This document shows positions 12,380 to 20,218 of a stretch of DNA of 39,001 bases, piece after piece. Below the pieces are notes generated by a model. That model was not told the origin of the DNA and made no database searches. It saw only the letters and a program-made list of their open reading frames with translations. Each line of letters opens with the position of its first letter. Within the stretch, counting starts at the first letter, position 1. The translations under genes were made by a program, and so were the position numbers. Source of the DNA: Candidatus Altimarinota bacterium (GTDB lineage: Bacteria; Patescibacteriota; Gracilibacteria; BD1-5; JAGOOR01); assembly GCA_041308705.1 (NCBI GenBank), contig JBFZBA010000061.1, positions 1-39,001 on the forward strand, written 5' to 3'.

Positions 12380-14527
12380 ATGATTTCAGGTATTCGCGAC
12401 AACAATGTCGGAGAGATTACTCCGATTTCGAAGTCTTATACTATCGCTGGTAAGATATACACTTTTGAGACTGGTACATTTGCCCTCCTCATCGATGGAG
12501 CCATCACGATCAAGGACGAACTCGGTCATGTCCTCCTCACCACAGCTGGTGTCAGCAAAAAAGGTAAAGCAGGAGCTGACTGGTTCCCTCTCTCTGTCGA
12601 CTATCAGGAGCGTTTTTATTCTACTGGTCATATCGGTGGTGGACGATTCAACAAGCGTGAAGCTCGTCCGACGACTTCTGCTATTCTCAATTCTCGTCTC
12701 ATCGATCGACCTATTCGTCCGATGTTCCCAAAAGGCACAACAAACGAAGTCCAGATCATCCCAACTATCTACTCTGCGACTGGTAAACAAGATTTCGGTG
12801 TCTGGGGTATCGCTGGTGCGAGTATCGCTCTCCAGCTCGCTGGTGTTCATCAATTTGAAGACGCAGTCTCTGGTGTCCGTCTCGCAGTTATGGAAGACGG
12901 TGGTATGATTTTTGATCCTACCTTTGAAGAAATCAATAACGCTCTCTACGAGCTCGTCGTCGCAGGTACAGCAGATATCATCACGATGGTTGAAATGGGC
13001 GGTAAGGAAGCAAGTGAAGAGATGATTATGCGTGGATTTGAGTACGCTCAGAAAGTCCTCGCAGAGCTCTCTGCAGCTCAGAAAGACTTCATCGCGACAG
13101 TAGAGGCAAAATACCCTATCACAAAGATGGACCTCGATATCAAGGCTGGGGTAGCTGGTCTCGAGGAAAAAGTCTTCGCAGTACTCTCTGCTGAGAAAAT
13201 CGAAGCACTCTACAATATTGGTAAGATAGATTTTCACCACAAACTCGAGGAAATCATCGAGGAAGCAAAAACAGCTCTCGGCTACACAGAGGATACAGAA
13301 GAATTGAACGGCAACGAAATCGGTGAACTCGTTTACAAGTTCGTCAAAAAAATCATGCGTAAAAACATCCTCGAATCAGGTCGTCGTCTCGATGGTCGAA
13401 AAGGTGACGAGGTACGCCCTATCATGACAGAAGTTGGTCTTCTCCCTCTCACGCACGGTTCAGGTCACTTCCGTCGTGGTGTCACATCAGTCCTCTCTAT
13501 CGCTACTCTCGGTGGACCTCTCGATAACGAGCTCGTCGAAGGTATGTATCCAGAATACGAACGACGCTACATGCATCACTACAACTTCCCTCCATACTCA
13601 GTCGGTGAGATAAAGATGATGCGTGGAGTTGGTCGTCGTGAAGTCGGTCATGGAAATCTCGCTGAAAAAGCCCTCATGCCTGTCCTCCCAAAAATAGAAG
13701 AATTCGGTTACACAGTCCGTGTCGTCTCTGAAGTCCACACCTGTAATGGCTCGAGCTCTATGGGCTCAGTCTGTGGATCGACACTCGCCCTCATGGATGC
13801 TGGTGTCCCTATCACAGCACCTGTCTCTGGCGTCGCTATGGGTATGGTCTTCGATGATGCAACTGGTAAATATGTCGTCCTCTCAGATATCCAGGCTCAA
13901 GAGGATTTCCTCGGAGATATGGATTTCAAGGTCGCAGGTACTCGAAAAGGTATCACAGCGCTCCAAATGGATACAAAGATTGACGGTCTCACGCTCGCAA
14001 TCGTCCGTGAAGTATTCGAACAAGCAAAAGGTGCTCGAGAATTTATCCTCCAGGGTATGCTCAAATCTATCGAAACTCCTCGTCCAGAAGTCTCTCCTCA
14101 CGCTCCTGCACTCATCTCTATGAAGATCGACCCATCAAAAATCGGTATGGTCATCGGTAAAGGTGGTGAAACTATCCAGGACATGCAGAAATACTTCGGA
14201 GTAGAAATCTCTATCGAAGACGATGGAACCGTCGTCATCACTGGTCCAAGCAAAGAAGCTGGTGAAGGTGCGAAAAAAGCTATCGAAAATATCGTCCGTG
14301 ATATCGAAGTCGGTCAAGAATTCGATGGTGAAGTCGTGAAAATCCTCGAAGGTGTCGGAGCTATCGTCGAAATCGGTGGTGGCAAGTCTGGTATGATCCA
14401 TATCAGTAAGCTCTCTGATAAGCGAGTAGAACGCGTAGAAGATGTCGTCAACACAGGAGACAAAGTCCACGTAAAAGTCATCCAGGTCGACAACGACAAA
14501 GGACGAATCGGATTGCAGAAGGTATAG
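12380..14527 (+). CDS. pnp: Polyribonucleotide nucleotidyltransferase (PNPase)
   Basis: Two RNase PH domains plus KH (GKGGETIQ) and S1 (GMIHISKL) domains. The ORF is uninterrupted. The start is taken at ATG 12380 rather than the upstream TTG. Confidence 0.95.
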   Translation: MISGIRDNNVGEITPISKSYTIAGKIYTFETGTFALLIDGAITIKDELGHVLLTTAGVSKKGKAGADWFPLSVDYQERFYSTGHIGGGRFNKREARPTTSAILNSRLIDRPIRPMFPKGTTNEVQIIPTIYSATGKQDFGVWGIAGASIALQLAGVHQFEDAVSGVRLAVMEDGGMIFDPTFEEINNALYELVVAGTADIITMVEMGGKEASEEMIMRGFEYAQKVLAELSAAQKDFIATVEAKYPITKMDLDIKAGVAGLEEKVFAVLSAEKIEALYNIGKIDFHHKLEEIIEEAKTALGYTEDTEELNGNEIGELVYKFVKKIMRKNILESGRRLDGRKGDEVRPIMTEVGLLPLTHGSGHFRRGVTSVLSIATLGGPLDNELVEGMYPEYERRYMHHYNFPPYSVGEIKMMRGVGRREVGHGNLAEKALMPVLPKIEEFGYTVRVVSEVHTCNGSSSMGSVCGSTLALMDAGVPITAPVSGVAMGMVFDDATGKYVVLSDIQAQEDFLGDMDFKVAGTRKGITALQMDTKIDGLTLAIVREVFEQAKGAREFILQGMLKSIETPRPEVSPHAPALISMKIDPSKIGMVIGKGGETIQDMQKYFGVEISIEDDGTVVITGPSKEAGEGAKKAIENIVRDIEVGQEFDGEVVKILEGVGAIVEIGGGKSGMIHISKLSDKRVERVEDVVNTGDKVHVKVIQVDNDKGRIGLQKV

Positions 14528-14558
14528 TTAGTAATTTACAATTTAACTAGAGCGGCTT

Positions 14559-15002
14559 ATGATCTTCTGATTTTGGATTATAGTTCTGATAGTAAACTCC
14601 TCAGAGCTCTCAAATGAAACATTAGTCGTTTGTAATCTTCTGTTCATACTAATCTTCATAGTGCAATCGTGAATTAAATACATGCCTCAATTAATGGGGT
14701 TATATATATTCAAGAACAGTGTGATAAATAAAAAATTAAGCTTATATATTGCAACAACTGATAGAGAGTATCTTGAAAAAATGATTGATGGTAGGGATGA
14801 TTTTGATGGTATTTACTGAGAATGTCATGAACGATTCCTTAGCCACATTTATGAAAGTGATAAATATGAGAAAGATGAATTAGAATATTACGACAGTAAT
14901 CTGGCAGAAAAGAATTCTTGAAAAATATATCATAAATGGGGATTTTGGAACATAATCATTTCTCACACTATACTCTTTGCCTTACTTGTAAGTAATCTTT
15001 AA
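14559..15002 (+). CDS. Hypothetical membrane protein (147 aa; the start could instead be ATG 14683)
   Basis: The frame is open with 4 TGA = Gly and ends at TAA 15000-15002. There are hydrophobic N- and C-terminal segments. The sequence is AT-rich. Confidence 0.4.
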
Positions 15003-15517
15003 TGGAAAATAATCCAAACCAAAATTACTCTATATGAGAAGATCCTCGTTCTTTCTTTAAAAATTTATTAAAGGATGATCATAAGTACTTACAAGAAAGT
15101 GCTGAAAAGTGGGCAGAGAAATTAACCTACGATTTAAGCAAACAAATAATTCAATTTAATTTCTTGTTTGTCGCTTTTGTAACAACTTTACAGGATGAAT
15201 TTACAAATAAAAATCTGCTATACATATCAATTATACTAAGCATATTTTCAATTATTTGAGCTTTTTGGTATCTTAATTTAATTTGCAACGAAAACATAAA
15301 AAGCATGAACAAAAGAAATGATATAGTAGAAAAAAGTTTAGAAAAAATAAATAAATGAGAGGACCCTCTTTTAGTACTTCCGGCACACAATGTAGAAATG
15401 TCTTACGCAATGTGATTACTGAGATGAAAAGAGGTATTTTTAAGAATTCTACAAAGAGCAGTTATTTTATGATTTATAGGTAGCTTAATTGTAGGAGTAG
15501 TTTGAATGTTGGGCTAA
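15002..15517 (+). CDS. Hypothetical membrane protein (171 aa) with a central TM hairpin and a C-terminal TM segment
   Basis: The start overlaps the previous stop (TAATG). The frame is open with 6 TGA = Gly and ends at TAA 15515-15517. TM segments: IIQFNFLFVAFVTTL, LLYISIILSIFSIIGAFWYL and AVILGFIGSLIVGVVGMLG. Confidence 0.45.
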
Positions 15518-15518
15518 A

Positions 15519-15785
15519 ATGAAATCCCCTCTCCTCCAAATCCCCTGAATCTGAAAAGTCATCGCCCGTGATTTAGTAGAAATGGGTTTTATCGAGGTAT
15601 CGGATTTACGAGGACAGAATCCAGAAATCATCTATGAAATGGCGAATAAGCTCCGAGGAAGTAAACAGGACCCTTGTCTCCTCTATACCTTTCGCTGTGC
15701 GGTATATTTCGCCGATACTCCTCCCGAGAAACGCGACCCAGAACTCCTCAAATGGTGGAATTGGAAGGATAGGAAATACAAATAG
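15519..15785 (+). CDS. Helix-hairpin-helix protein (Cdd1 / 'pathogenicity locus' PF11731-like)
   Basis: MKSPLLQIPGIGKVIARDLVEMGF, where both Gly of the HhH GIG motif are TGA. The C-terminal LLKWWNWKDRKYK is also present. Confidence 0.65.
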
Positions 15786-15793
15786 TCTCCCCT

Positions 15794-16014
15794 TCCCGTC
15801 ATTCCGGGCACGCGAATACCATGCCGTAGGCGGGTATGAGTACGACCCGGAATCCAGGAGAATAAACTACGCGGAGCGAGCCTAATACAATTATAAGGAT
15901 TAAATATTTTTACCTGGATCCCCGGGTCGCGTTTTCCCCTGCTTCACAATGAAAAAACTTGCCCGAGGATGACGGAATCAAGTCTGGATACCGTGTCGAG
16001 CACGGTATGACGAA
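15794..16014. repeat. GC-rich nested-palindrome (MITE/REP-like) intergenic element
   Basis: ATTCCGGG (15801-15808) pairs with CCCGGAAT (15846-15853). ACCCGGAATCCAGG (about 15845-15858) nearly pairs with CCTGGATCCCCGGGT (about 15913-15927). The outer arms CCGTCATTCCGGGCA and TGCCCGAGGATGACGG are imperfect complements. A perfect hairpin ATACCGTG-tcgag-CACGGTAT lies at 15988-16008. Confidence 0.6.
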
Positions 16015-16050
16015 TCAAAACTGTATACTTTTTTTCAACGGTATGACAGG

Positions 16051-16353
16051 CTACTTACCCCATTTCTTCTGCCACTCCAGTAGTCCGCAGACGTGAGCAC
16101 AAAATGACTCCCCTTTTTTGGTGAGTGAATAGCGTATTTTTATTGGCTTTTGTTGGACTATTTCCCGCACGATGAATCCTTCCTCTTCCATCTCAGAGAG
16201 ACGAGTGGAGAGGATTTTTTGATTGATGTCCCCTATCTCATCTTTGATAGCAGTAAATGTTTCATGTCCATCGTGCATGGTTTTCAGGATAACCATGATC
16301 CATTTTTTGTTGATGAAATTCAGAACCTCAGCGATGTCACAATCTTTTTTCAT
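16051..16353 (-). CDS. HxlR-family (DUF24) winged-helix transcriptional regulator
   Basis: Length is 100 aa. Motifs KWIMVILKTM..., ETFTAIKDEIGDINQKILSTRLSEMEEEGFIVRE and IRYSLTKKG. Confidence 0.85.
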   Translation of the reverse strand: MKKDCDIAEVLNFINKKWIMVILKTMHDGHETFTAIKDEIGDINQKILSTRLSEMEEEGFIVREIVQQKPIKIRYSLTKKGESFCAHVCGLLEWQKKWGK

Positions 16354-16359
16354 AAAATT

Positions 16360-16431
16360 AGTTGCAAAAAGAAACTAAGTAAATATACTAAACTAAGTTT
16401 CAGTATATATATCAATTATATATTTGCAACT
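16360..16431. promoter_or_regulatory. Divergent promoter region with candidate operator inverted repeats
   Basis: AGTTGCAAA (16360-16368) and TTTGCAACT (16423-16431) form a perfect 9-bp inverted repeat. Between them is an imperfect palindrome GAAACTAAGT...AACTAAGTTTC. Confidence 0.3.
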
Positions 16432-16454
16432 CATTCATTTCTTAACAATCGCAT

Positions 16455-17153
16455 ATGAAGTATATATTTATTGTCACGCTCACGACTCTGATGCTCGCAG
16501 GTTGCAGCATCTATGAGACTAAAGATTCACAAACAAGCACTCCTGCAGAAGAAGTGGAATATAGTGTCAGCCCTGCCGACATGCTCTCCCCTACTCTCGC
16601 AGACACTCTCGCGACTAGCGACATATCAGAGCAAGAGAGAAATTCTCTCATCTGGATGAGAGAAGAAGAAAAACTCGCACACGATGTCTATACAGCACTC
16701 TCTCAGAAATGGGGAAAACAAATATTTAGCAATATCGCTGCCAGTGAACAAACACACACAGGAGCAGTTCTCGGACTGCTGACGAAGTATGGTATACCTG
16801 ACCCAGCAAAATCAGAACCAGGAGTATTTACCTCTCCAGAACTCCAAAAACTCTATGACACTCTCATAGCTCAAGGGAATACTTCCCTCCTGGATGCACT
16901 CATAGTGTGAGCGACGATAGAAGACCTCGACATCTACGACCTCGATACTCAGATGAAAAATATCGATAACGCTGATATAGCTACTGTCTATGCCGAGCTC
17001 AAGAGAGGCTCAGAGAATCACATGAGAGCCTTTGTGCGAAATATCACTCAGGCTGGATGAAGCTATACACCCAAATACATATCACTCTCCGACTACGAAG
17101 CTATCCTCAGCACCGAACAACAGCGATGAATGGGCAGAGGCAGAAACAATTAA
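16455..17153 (+). CDS. DUF2202 (ferritin-like) lipoprotein
   Basis: Lipobox LMLAGC. Motifs IWMREEEKLAHDVY, NIAASEQTH, GATIEDLDIYDL and GSENHMRAF. Three TGA = Gly codons. TAA at 17151-17153. Confidence 0.7.
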
Positions 17154-17177
17154 TATTTATTTTTTACACTACTTTTT

Positions 17178-19028
17178 ATGAATCATCTCACCTATTCCGA
17201 AGCACAGAAGCTCGCACAATCTGGCAAAAAAATCATCTATATAGATGTACGAACCCCTGGAGAGCATCATCTCGAACATATCAGGGATTCTATCAATCTC
17301 CCGCTTGATTCATTTGATGCGACGAGCTATCGAGAAAAACTCGAAAAATACGACATGGTTATCGCCTATTGTAACACAGGAAATGTCTCTTCTCAATTTA
17401 TCAAACGGGCAGCACAATCAGGTATCAATAATGTCTCTAATCTGACAGGTGGTATATCTGTGTGCAAGGATTGTCCTATTGAAAAAGAAAAATGACCGCT
17501 CCCCATCATGAGACAAGTCCAGGTAGCAGCAGGATTGCTCGTACTCCTCGGTATCATCCTCTCATGGATGGCATATCCTTTTATCGGTATAAGCCTCTTC
17601 GTCGGAGCTGGTCTCGTATTCGCAGGGATAAGTGGATGGTGTGGTATGGCAAAAATCCTCGGAAAGATGCCATGGAATAATCCAAAACTCTATCAGAAAA
17701 GCACAGAAGTTACAGGAGAAAATCTCCTCATACGTCAGTTCGAAGACAAAAAACTCGCTCATTATTCGTACATAGCTCTGAGCGACAGTGAGGCAGTAGT
17801 CGTCGACCCTGAGCGTGATATTCAGAAATACTTAGACTTTGCAAAAGACAAAAATGCAACAATTGTCGGAGTACTCAATACTCATCCTCATGCTGACTTT
17901 GCCAGTGGACATCTCGAGCTCCATGAAAAAACGGGAGCAACGATTTATGTCGGAGAAAAGGTAGGTGCTGAATACCCTCACGTTGGAACAAAAGATGGTG
18001 ACGAGATAACTTTTTGAAGTTCAAAAATTGTCTCTTATTTCACACCAGGACATTCGCCTGATAGTATCAGCTATATGACTCTGGACGCACGCGGAAAAGA
18101 GATAGGGTTCTTCACAGGCGATTGGCTCTTTATCGGAGATGTCGGTCGTGCGGATCTCAGAGAAAACGTCGGAAATATCAAGGCTCAACAGAGAGAACTC
18201 GCTGGAAATATGTATGACACAACTCGTACGATATTGCCACAGATTGATAGAGACACTATGATACTCCCCGCTCACGGAGCTGGAACATCGTGTGGAAAAT
18301 GACTCAGTAAACAGAATATGGCGACGCTCGAGAATCAGAGAAAATTTAATCCTATGCTGCAGGATATGTCACGAGAGGATTTCGTAGCAGAACTCACTTC
18401 AGACCAGCCCGCTATCCCTGCATACTTCACCAATAGTGTCCTCCTAAATAAAAAAGGAAATACTTCTTTCACGGAGTCAAAAGAACAAATCAAATCACTC
18501 ACCACTCTTCCAAAAGATATCAGAATCATAGATACCCGAACATGGGAAAAAGTGGCACTGAATCCAGTCCATACTGATGCGCTCAATATCGACCAAGAAA
18601 GTGCAGCATTTACAGGGCTACTAGGTGCCATCATCATGCCCGATGAAAAGTACGCCATTATCATTGAGAAAAATGCAAATAGAGAAAGTATTGTTCACGA
18701 TATTCTCAGTATCTGATATGAGAAAAATCTCGTAGGAATATACAGCCTCGAACATGTCCATATAGATTCGATAAAAACAACACGAGCCGACATCAAAGAA
18801 AATCCATCCATACGCATCCTCGATGTGCGAAGCGTCGGAACAGTGACAGACAATCCCTACGATCTCCCGAGCATCAATATCCCTATCGAAGAATTACCAC
18901 ATCGTTTCACAGAACTCGATAAAAAAATCACCTATGTGCCTTATTGTGGAGGAGCATACAAATCCAGTCTCGCCCTCACGTGGTTACAATCACACGGATA
19001 CAAAGCACAAAAACTCACCATCTCATAA
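17178..19028 (+). CDS. Rhodanese - DUF2892 (YgaP-like 2-TM) - MBL-fold persulfide dioxygenase (CstB-like) - rhodanese-like - rhodanese fusion, 616 aa
   Basis: ORFs 17178-17495, 17508-18017, 18075-18302, 18318-18716 and 18825-19028 are all in one frame and separated only by TGA codons. Motifs: [46 protein letters not shown] and [12 protein letters not shown]. Confidence 0.75.
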
Positions 19029-19037
19029 TCCCCTTCC

Positions 19038-19823
19038 ATGATTATCCTCGGCTACATATCATCCATTCTCGTTGGGGTCACACTCGGACTCATCGGTGGA
19101 GGAGGGAGTATACTCACTGTCCCTATTCTGGTATATCTCTTTGGTATTCCTATGGTAGTAGCATCGAGCTATTCCCTGTTCATAGTCTGAGTCACGAGCC
19201 TCATAGGTGGTATGAAATACACACGACAGAAACTCGTGAAACCAATGCAGGTTATGGTATTTGGCATTCCAGCAGTTATTGCAGTGTTTTTGACGCGTGT
19301 ATGGATTTTACCCAGTATTCCCGCCGATATACTTATCTGGGGAATATCTGTCTCAAAAGATATACTCTTGCTTGGTTTTTTTGCAGTGCTCATGATAGCG
19401 GCTTCGCTTTCTATGATTTTCCCGCAGAAACTCAAAAACACTGGAAAGAAAAAACACATTATCTGGATTATATTAGAAGGAGCAGCAGTCGGAACCATTA
19501 CTGGATTAGTGGGTGCTGGAGGAGGCTTTATGATTATCCCTGCTCTCGTGATATTCAATAAAATGCCAATGAAAGAAGCAATAGGTACTTCGCTCTTTAT
19601 CATCGCTCTCAATTCTCTCATAGGATTCACGAGTAGTCTTCATGGAACTGAAGTGGATTGGATACTTCTTTTACAGATAGCGAGCCTCGCTATCGTTGGT
19701 ATATTTATCGGCAATAAAGCCTCAAAAAAAATATCTTGAGAAGTCCTCAAGCCCATCTTTTGATGGTTCGTGCTCATACTCGGCTCTGTAATTCTCATAC
19801 AAGAACTGAGCCATATATTATAA
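19038..19823 (+). CDS. TauE/SafE-family sulfite/anion exporter
   Basis: GLIGGGGSILTVPILVY and GLVGAGGGFMIIPALV repeats. Three TGA = Gly codons. The frame extends past the track's stop to TAA 19821-19823. Confidence 0.85.
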
Positions 19824-19846
19824 TTTATTTTTTACCCCTTATTTTT

Positions 19847-20161
19847 ATGTCACGCGTTATAGAACTCAATCACCAGAACTTCGAAAAAGAAGTCTCAATT
19901 GGTGTTACGCTCGTCGATTTCTGGGCACCTTGGTGCGGGCCATGCCAGATGATGCTCCCAAATCTCGCTGAGTTTGCAGAGAAAGCATCTGGAGTAAAAG
20001 TTGCCAAAGTAAATGTCGATCAAAATATGGATCTCGCTCAACGATTTCGTATTATGGGTATACCAACACTCATAGTCTTTAAGGACGGCCAAATCATGGC
20101 ACAAACCTCTGGAGTTCACAATGCAAGTCAACTCACGGAACTCACGAAAAAATACATCTAA
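19847..20161 (+). CDS. trxA: Thioredoxin
   Basis: VDFWAPWCGPCQMMLP, with GIPTLIVFKDG downstream. Confidence 0.93.
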   Translation: MSRVIELNHQNFEKEVSIGVTLVDFWAPWCGPCQMMLPNLAEFAEKASGVKVAKVNVDQNMDLAQRFRIMGIPTLIVFKDGQIMAQTSGVHNASQLTELTKKYI

Positions 20162-20174
20162 TTTTTAAAAAATA

Positions 20175-20201
20175 AAAGACCTCCTAAATTGGGAGGTCTT
20201 T
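20175..20201. terminator. Bidirectional intrinsic terminator between convergent genes
   Basis: AAAGACCTCC-taaattg-GGAGGTCTTT, flanked by A-runs upstream and T-runs downstream. Confidence 0.7.
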
Positions 20202-20218
20202 TAAATAAGTATACCAAA

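Follow-up and report, generated by a model that had tools for sequence, protein, structure and literature searches.

We have analysed a window, by which we mean the whole 39,001-nucleotide stretch of DNA from a Candidatus Altimarinota bacterium, and describe in it a gene (17178-19028) that joins in one frame the counterparts of two separately studied proteins, the membrane rhodanese YgaP of Escherichia coli and the persulfide dioxygenase (PDO) CstB of Staphylococcus aureus. With a probability that we put at about 0.85, the product is one 616-residue inner-membrane protein in which all four in-frame TGA codons would be read as glycine, which would serve detoxification of the CstB type and which would stem from a fusion of adjacent genes. 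Its architecture is a rare, conserved and previously undescribed combination of two known modules; no report of a YgaP-CstB fusion was found in the literature, nor was "persulfide dioxygenase" found there together with DUF2892. The gene and its parts, all on the + strand, are the following.

17178..19028 (+): YgaP-CstB fusion gene (translation, Pfam, PDB alignment, orthologs, AlphaFold2, Foldseek)
17178..17486 (+): N-terminal rhodanese, residues 1-103 (PF00581, 67.5 bits, residues 8-94; AlphaFold2)
17493..17495 (+): TGA read as Gly106, in the flexible stretch that links the rhodanese to the first transmembrane helix, with a predicted local distance difference test score (pLDDT) <50
17505..17663 (+): YgaP/DUF2892 two-helix membrane hairpin, residues 110-131 and 136-162 (PF11127, 2mpn, AlphaFold2)
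17706..18497 (+): CstB-type (type III) persulfide dioxygenase, residues 177-440 (3tp9, 3r2u, Foldseek, invariant columns)
18015..18017 (+): TGA read as Gly280, in a column that is 99% Gly in 91 standard-code homologues
18300..18302 (+): TGA read as Gly375, in a dynamic loop three residues past the catalytic Cys372; equivalent to CstB S204
18510..18752 (+): middle Cys-less pseudo-rhodanese, residues ~445-525 (alignment to the 3r2u middle domain; alpha/beta elements in AlphaFold2)
18714..18716 (+): TGA read as Gly513, in the motif SIGYE; column 100% Gly in 91 standard-code homologues
18783..19025 (+): C-terminal catalytic rhodanese, residues ~536-616 (3r2u alignment to residue 608; TIGR04271, E 6e-11, residues 544-610)

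Translated with table 25, the frame consists of 616 codons followed by a TAA stop and holds exactly the four TGA codons listed above. Table 11 splits the same frame into five open reading frames (ORFs; 17178-17495, 17508-18017, 18075-18302, 18318-18716 and 18825-19028), each of which has a possible start codon. The first-pass annotation, made from the letters alone, had described one ORF of 616 residues whose five table-11 parts are parted only by TGA, and the two translations agree with it; its further claim, a single gene with TGA as glycine, is upheld by a tRNA with anticodon UCA, by release factor 1 (RF1) as the only release factor found and by the Gly columns of standard-code homologues. 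Nearly all of the long frames of the window likewise require sense TGA.

The genome assembly to which the window belongs (888 kb in 82 contigs, 89% complete) carries the tRNA(UCA) gene on contig C64 (11100-11178), adjoining tRNA-Gly(GCC), and its acceptor stem (G1-C72, C2-G71, G3-C70) and discriminator U73 match the two tRNA-Gly genes and not tRNA-Trp. The sole class-I release factor found in the assembly scores above the prfA cut-off (457 bits) and below the prfB cut-off; release factor 2 (RF2) was not found, an absence that is not absolute at 89% completeness. This prfA (contig C14, 5596-6651), the only release factor gene of the genome, holds two in-frame TGA itself. When 53 TGA codons of the window gene and of its orthologs in genomes G105 and G042 were aligned with 91 standard-code homologues, 34 fell on majority-Gly columns and none on a Trp column, and the code-4 reading of TGA as tryptophan was rejected for the latter reason; at column 375 the homologues have small residues (A/G/N). 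Among nine orthologs for which DNA was at hand, a given column may carry TGA in some sequences and GGN in others, and at window sites 106, 280 and 513 G105 has GGA, GGT and GGA. Because the tRNA(UCA) is of the glycine type, RF1 alone was found, the TGA sites lie on Gly columns and TGA interchanges with GGN, we conclude from these sequence data that the genome translates TGA as glycine and that all four TGAs are ordinary glycine codons. The orthologs held in public databases (P0003-P0027) have mostly been translated with TGA as tryptophan and show 2.3-6.2% "W" at glycine columns; such false tryptophans weaken Pfam hits and would mislead alignments.

The first-pass annotation had proposed five parts, including a rhodanese-like domain without cysteine, and this order is recovered by Pfam, NCBIfam, PDB alignment, AlphaFold2 and Foldseek; all of the motifs that it quoted are present, among them YCNTGNV (Cys65) and YCGGAYKSS (Cys590). 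The catalytic Cys65 of the N-terminal rhodanese lies in CNTGNVS (codon 17370-17372). The hairpin is recognized by Pfam YgaP-like_TM (PF11127; residues 112-163, 30.8 bits against a cut-off of 25.3) and by the YgaP transmembrane structure 2mpn (residues 106-168, E 2.7e-18); it has a conserved Cys155, Lys/Arg on both flanks and an outer loop of four residues. From these flanking charges (the positive-inside rule) and from E. coli YgaP an N-in/C-in topology is predicted, which would place the first rhodanese as well as the CstB module on the cytoplasmic side. Since the chain runs 450 residues past the hairpin, the product is not a stand-alone YgaP. What follows is matched by Pfam Lactamase_B (residues 194-339), by 3tp9 (183-433, E 2e-51) and by 3r2u, S. 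aureus CstB itself (183-608, E 5.7e-42). The AlphaFold2 model, built from an alignment of 23 sequences (mean pLDDT 80), shows a rhodanese (1-103), a disordered linker (104-109), the two helices (110-131 and 136-162), the dioxygenase (177-~440), an alpha/beta domain (~445-525) and a rhodanese (~536-616); pLDDT falls below 50 over 368-377, the region of the Cys372-Gly373 loop. The best Foldseek matches of the model are 3tp9 and 3r2u, the latter with a TM score of 0.86.

Catalytic residues were transferred through the 3r2u alignment from a 2026 structural study of CstB, in which H56, H119 and D145 form the Fe triad, C201-G202 is a self-sulfonating Cys-Gly pair, G198 is a loop glycine, R370 and R413 make up a positive patch and C408 is the rhodanese cysteine (PMC12934615). 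Their counterparts in the window protein, mostly invariant or near-invariant in the alignment, comprise all of the published set except for one Arg replaced by Lys.

H236, H292, D315: predicted metal site, equivalent to the CstB Fe triad H56, H119, D145; invariant in 23 sequences
C372-G373: equivalent to CstB C201-G202; invariant
G369: equivalent to the CstB loop glycine G198; present
R551: equivalent to CstB R370 of the positive patch; conserved
K595: equivalent to CstB R413 of the positive patch; Arg to Lys, charge kept
C590 (codon 18945-18947): equivalent to the CstB rhodanese cysteine C408; conserved

The protein has six cysteines only (C65, C96, C99, C155, C372 and C590), none of them between C372 and C590. 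Two of them form a CxxC motif (C96-K-D-C99; 17463-17474) where the first rhodanese ends, right ahead of the linker; the motif is kept in a seven-member subclade (as CQGC, CKVC, CKSC and CTVC) and is found neither in the P0017 group nor in the fused proteins of standard-code organisms.

E. coli YgaP ends after its hairpin, at about 174 residues. With it the window protein shares the N-terminal rhodanese with a catalytic cysteine followed by the DUF2892 two-helix hairpin, but the chain here continues into a complete CstB module. CstB of S. aureus, alignable end to end over residues 183-608 at an identity of ~27%, has equivalents of the Fe triad, the Cys-Gly loop, G198, R370 and C408, and a TauE exporter occurs in both clusters; CstB is however soluble and 444 residues long, whereas the window protein has some 180 additional N-terminal residues (rhodanese and hairpin) and a Lys in place of R413. 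YgaP and CstB are separate proteins in E. coli and S. aureus, as had been claimed. The gene context differs as well from that of the S. aureus cst operon (cstR / tauE / cstA-cstB-sqr), in that the window has an HxlR-type gene and no adjoining CstR, and sqr was not found in its 89%-complete genome. The PDO-rhodanese fusion (PRF) of Burkholderia phytofirmans (5ve3-5ve5) is similar in fusing a PDO to a catalytic rhodanese, but has neither pseudo-rhodanese nor membrane anchor, serves an assimilatory role and is a far weaker match (E 2.5e-16). Adjacent genes for a PDO and a rhodanese have been reported in bacteria of the Candidate Phyla Radiation from sulfidic springs, and PDO chemistry had been linked to Patescibacteria, Gracilibacteria included, from sulfur-rich habitats (PMC10811913); unlike the single membrane-anchored chain described here, those are separate neighbouring genes modelled on the B. 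phytofirmans enzyme. In a paper on the rhodaneses of sqr-pdo operons, YgaP is named solely as a reference rhodanese.

A search of 5.8 billion proteins returned about 26 full-length code-25 orthologs at 46-58% identity, the best of which is an NCBI record labelled "Inner membrane protein YgaP" from SR1 bacterium Aalborg_AAW-1. Bacteria other than those of code 25 have the fusion as well: five metagenome proteins of standard-code origin (P0028, P0031 and P0033-P0035; 37-41% identity) carry the same five parts in an uninterrupted ORF and show no excess of Trp. Two of them, P0028 and P0035, could be placed on their contigs (L001 and L004), where they are continuous table-11 ORFs whose neighbours lack in-frame TGA, two neighbours ending in TGA, and where a PF02583 (CsoR/CstR-family) repressor lies upstream of each. 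These standard-code proteins differ from the window protein in that upstream repressor and in a hairpin-dioxygenase linker that is ~25 residues longer and Cys-rich (e.g., SCCSTQNCS). The architecture had been called unusual, and so it is: in a library of 1.84 billion representatives the fusion occurs in three clusters (P0014, P0032 and P0035) among 537 matches below 1e-30, the remaining strong matches being CstB-like proteins of ~450 residues. A reverse CstB-YgaP fusion was considered among the longer CstB-like proteins (639-844 residues) and rejected; none of them has PF11127, and they bear extra rhodanese or phosphatase-like (DUF442-type) domains instead.

The same two modules also occur as split genes in the same order. 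G090 (contig L009) has a cstR-like gene, ygaP (172 residues), a 24-nucleotide gap, cstB (455 residues) and a gene for a secreted rhodanese-DUF2202 protein, and metagenome contig L022 has a cstR-like gene, a rhodanese gene (173 residues), a 14-nucleotide gap and cstB (446 residues); what sets these operons apart from the window gene is the stop and the gap of 14-24 nucleotides at the junction. In G021 the split genes lie in reverse order, and the stand-alone YgaP-like proteins of the relatives measure 172-181 residues. Because this gene order persists unfused in relatives, the sequences point to an origin in which neighbouring ygaP and cstB genes became fused at least once. A tree built from the CstB portion divides the fused proteins into two clades, those of code 25 (support 99) and those of the standard code (98), the latter with the split L022 protein as its sister; uniting all fused proteins in one clade is neither favoured nor rejected (p-AU 0.61, approximately unbiased test).

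We propose that the protein acts as a membrane-tethered detoxification unit of the CstB type. The tethered, cytoplasm-facing N-terminal rhodanese (Cys65) would gather sulfane sulfur at the membrane and pass it to the dioxygenase module, and the DUF2892 hairpin would anchor the protein and return the chain to the cytoplasm. Cys372 would take up the persulfide sulfur, which O2 would then oxidise at the iron site to an S-sulfonate; a persulfidated Cys590 would accept this group, and thiosulfate (or sulfite) would be set free. The neighbouring TauE exporter would remove these products, and thioredoxin would reset oxidised cysteines. The sequences themselves show the single frame, the code, the set of domains, the kept catalytic residues, the operon and the fused and split relatives; the mechanism we infer from homology to S. 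aureus CstB, and the topology, the substrates, the products and the part played by the individual cysteines are likewise inferred.

Several points weigh against this picture. PDO chemistry requires O2, and these bacteria are usually seen as fermentative anaerobes. The genome, 89% complete, yielded no candidate for a sulfide:quinone oxidoreductase (SQR), its single Pyr_redox_2 ORF (289 residues) being too short and outside the cluster, and the regulator here is of the HxlR type rather than CstR. On the side of the protein, K595 stands where CstB has an important Arg, the middle domain scanned alone gave no Pfam hit, the last domain scanned alone reached 20.9 bits with Pfam Rhodanese, slightly below the cut-off, and the hairpin topology is read only from flanking charges and from E. 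coli YgaP. As to the code, columns 106 and 375 retain TGA more than shuffling predicts, and plain synonymous usage is not a full explanation of this.

There is next to no chance that the organism uses the standard code and that the five table-11 ORFs are small independent genes or relics of one disrupted gene, and that view is already contradicted: table 11 does break the frame into five pieces, each with a possible start, but in-frame TGA occurs in nearly every long gene of the window and even in prfA, the TGA sites of the gene family lie on Gly columns, and the 89%-complete genome has a tRNA(UCA) and yielded no RF2. The pieces would moreover sever the metallo-beta-lactamase fold and a rhodanese fold, and orthologs keep the whole frame with TGA at differing positions. 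The same 616-residue protein could alternatively serve sulfur acquisition after the manner of the Burkholderia PRF, its rhodaneses drawing sulfane sulfur from thiosulfate and its dioxygenase making sulfite for assimilation and not for disposal. The B. phytofirmans structures 5ve3 and 5ve4 are significant matches, rhodanese reactions are reversible (PMC9163753) and no SQR was found that would generate persulfide internally; the protein is, however, far nearer to the CstB type (3tp9, E 2e-51, and 3r2u, E 5.7e-42, versus 5ve3, E 2.5e-16), retains the CstB-specific Cys-Gly loop and pseudo-rhodanese domain, and has a TauE exporter directly downstream, while a CsoR/CstR-family (PF02583) repressor precedes the genes in relatives. 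We consider acquisition unlikely, and detoxification of the CstB type remains the reading that we prefer.

The position of the TGA codons raises another question, since the first-pass annotation had placed the one at 17493 on the rhodanese/DUF2892 boundary and wondered whether UGA retains some stop function. Codon 106 does lie in the linker between rhodanese and hairpin, but not between two once-separate proteins: both sides of it belong to the YgaP module, which E. coli and standard-code relatives make as a single polypeptide, and the actual fusion junction (~165-182) holds no TGA. The TGA at 18714, said to fall near the start of the last rhodanese, is in the AlphaFold2 model at the last helix-strand turn of the pseudo-rhodanese (G513), ~20 residues ahead of the last domain. 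At codon 106 standard-code relatives carry Gly and not a stop, in YgaP-like and in fused proteins: stand-alone YgaP-like proteins run on with Gly in G090 (TKGKGAISIMRQ) and in G021 (KKGKLPLMRQ), and two of the five fused ones (P0028 and P0031) have Gly at this column. With RF2 not found, Gly in these uninterrupted homologues and GGA in G105, there is no support for residual termination.

A second role of UGA at codon 106, and perhaps at 375, was nevertheless weighed, either as a slow-decoding pause or as low-level termination, with the outcome that a soluble rhodanese of 105 residues would accompany the full-length membrane protein or that membrane insertion would be timed. In nine code-25 sequences (the window and orthologs L007, L008 and L024-L029), where TGA makes up between 12% (window) and 74% of Gly codons, column 106 has TGA in seven (GGA in G105, AAC in P0027) and column 375 in eight, and at nine Gly columns, G373 among them, TGA occurs never or once. 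When TGA was shuffled among the Gly codons of each sequence, 0.05 nearly-all-TGA columns were expected versus 2 observed and 3.8 nearly-never-TGA columns versus 9, in a post hoc test on one family of nine related sequences that ignores shared ancestry. One-step synonymous Leu codons (TTR/CTN) in the same alignment show no comparable positional conservation, and the two columns rich in TGA fall within the two segments of pLDDT <50. Against a second role stand, besides these limits of the test, the RF2 that was not found, the GGA and AAC at column 106 and the continuity, with Gly, of standard-code fused and split homologues there; GC-to-TA mutation bias with tolerance of TGA at unconstrained sites would explain the pattern too. 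The simplest reading is that sites free of constraint tolerate TGA while mutation is AT-biased, and a pause or low-level termination at codon 106 seems to us highly improbable. Only slightly better is the standing of a broader idea, still very unlikely, that UGA is not fully equal to GGN and is held at the two flexible segments (codons 106 and 375) and kept from critical glycines such as G373, through a programmed pause or a rare termination freeing the soluble rhodanese; if true, UGA decoding would serve to coordinate how a multidomain protein folds or enters the membrane. We therefore return to the TGAs as ordinary glycine codons of one membrane protein.

The fusion gene is the second of an operon that runs from a DUF2202 lipoprotein through the fusion, TauE and thioredoxin to a hairpin. 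The surrounding features of the window are as follows.

14521..20173: 5.65-kb segment with the pnp stop on one side and the pnp terminator on the other, bearing the whole cluster; absent from the same-genus genome G089
16051..16353 (-): divergent HxlR-family regulator with N-terminal Cys5 (PF01638, E 1.1e-21)
16455..17153 (+): DUF2202 (ferritin-like) lipoprotein, lipobox LAGC (PF09968, E 2.8e-55); first operon gene
19038..19823 (+): TauE/SafE-family sulfite (anion) exporter (PF01925, E 1.2e-43); start 9 nucleotides past the fusion stop
19847..20161 (+): thioredoxin, ~104 residues from the ATG at 19847 (PF00085, E 2.1e-28)
20173..20203: terminator-like hairpin at the end of the operon; found again directly 3' of pnp in G089

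TauE also lies downstream of the fusion in G105, and thioredoxin follows it on three further contigs (L025, L027 and L028). On other code-25 contigs the neighbours are thioredoxin, TauE or a SLAC1/TehA-like channel, single rhodaneses, DUF2202 and, very often, a small DUF134 protein. The latter (PF02001) stands beside the fusion on six of them (L007 3670-4044, L024 2782-3081, L025 2652-2957, L027 5472-5720, L028 5229-5600 and L029 2646-2975) and may be the usual regulator there; the HxlR-family protein is a candidate sensor for the operon of the window, and regulator types thus differ, being HxlR-family here, DUF134 on the six code-25 contigs and CsoR/CstR-like in standard-code relatives. A DUF2202 protein with a lipoprotein signal recurs beside the fusion or the split genes (L009 643-1437, L024 292-858 and L026 6676-7227), and in G090 DUF2202 is fused to a secreted rhodanese, which suggests an extracytoplasmic partner of the system; in the literature we found DUF2202 mentioned only in an unrelated context. 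A near-identical AT-rich leader (TTTATTTTTTAC...TTTTTATG) precedes the starts of the fusion (17154-17177) and of the thioredoxin gene (19824-19846), and no Shine-Dalgarno-like purine run is visible in either.

The 5.65-kb segment contains two genes for membrane proteins of unknown function, a Cdd1-like gene, the HxlR, DUF2202 and fusion genes, tauE and the thioredoxin gene. In G089, a 98%-complete genome of the same genus in which no fusion was found, pnp is followed within 18 nucleotides by the same terminator hairpin as at 20173-20203 of the window, and because the hairpin there directly follows pnp, the segment is present here and absent from G089. Among 200 genomes of the class, the full fusion occurs in G105 and G042 only, both of family f14 and of another order than the window genome, and 400 additional genomes of the phylum held no further full-length fusion; on the tree the window protein groups with that of G042 (P0012) and with the G105 group. 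Because the segment is absent from G089 and the protein nests with those of family f14, a transfer among code-25 lineages is suggested, in which an accessory segment of 5.65 kb probably brought the gene into this genome; G089 may alternatively have lost the segment by deletion.

The main value of the finding lies in the natural link between YgaP and CstB. That two proteins studied separately are fused in nature argues for one common pathway, which is supported also because relatives carry split cstR-ygaP-cstB operons. For YgaP it offers an idea of function, that of a membrane-side collector of sulfane sulfur feeding a persulfide dioxygenase beside a sulfite/thiosulfate exporter. Judged from sequence, very small, host-dependent bacteria would possess an O2-dependent sulfur-detoxifying module, carried on an accessory segment that is seemingly mobile between lineages sharing the TGA=Gly code.

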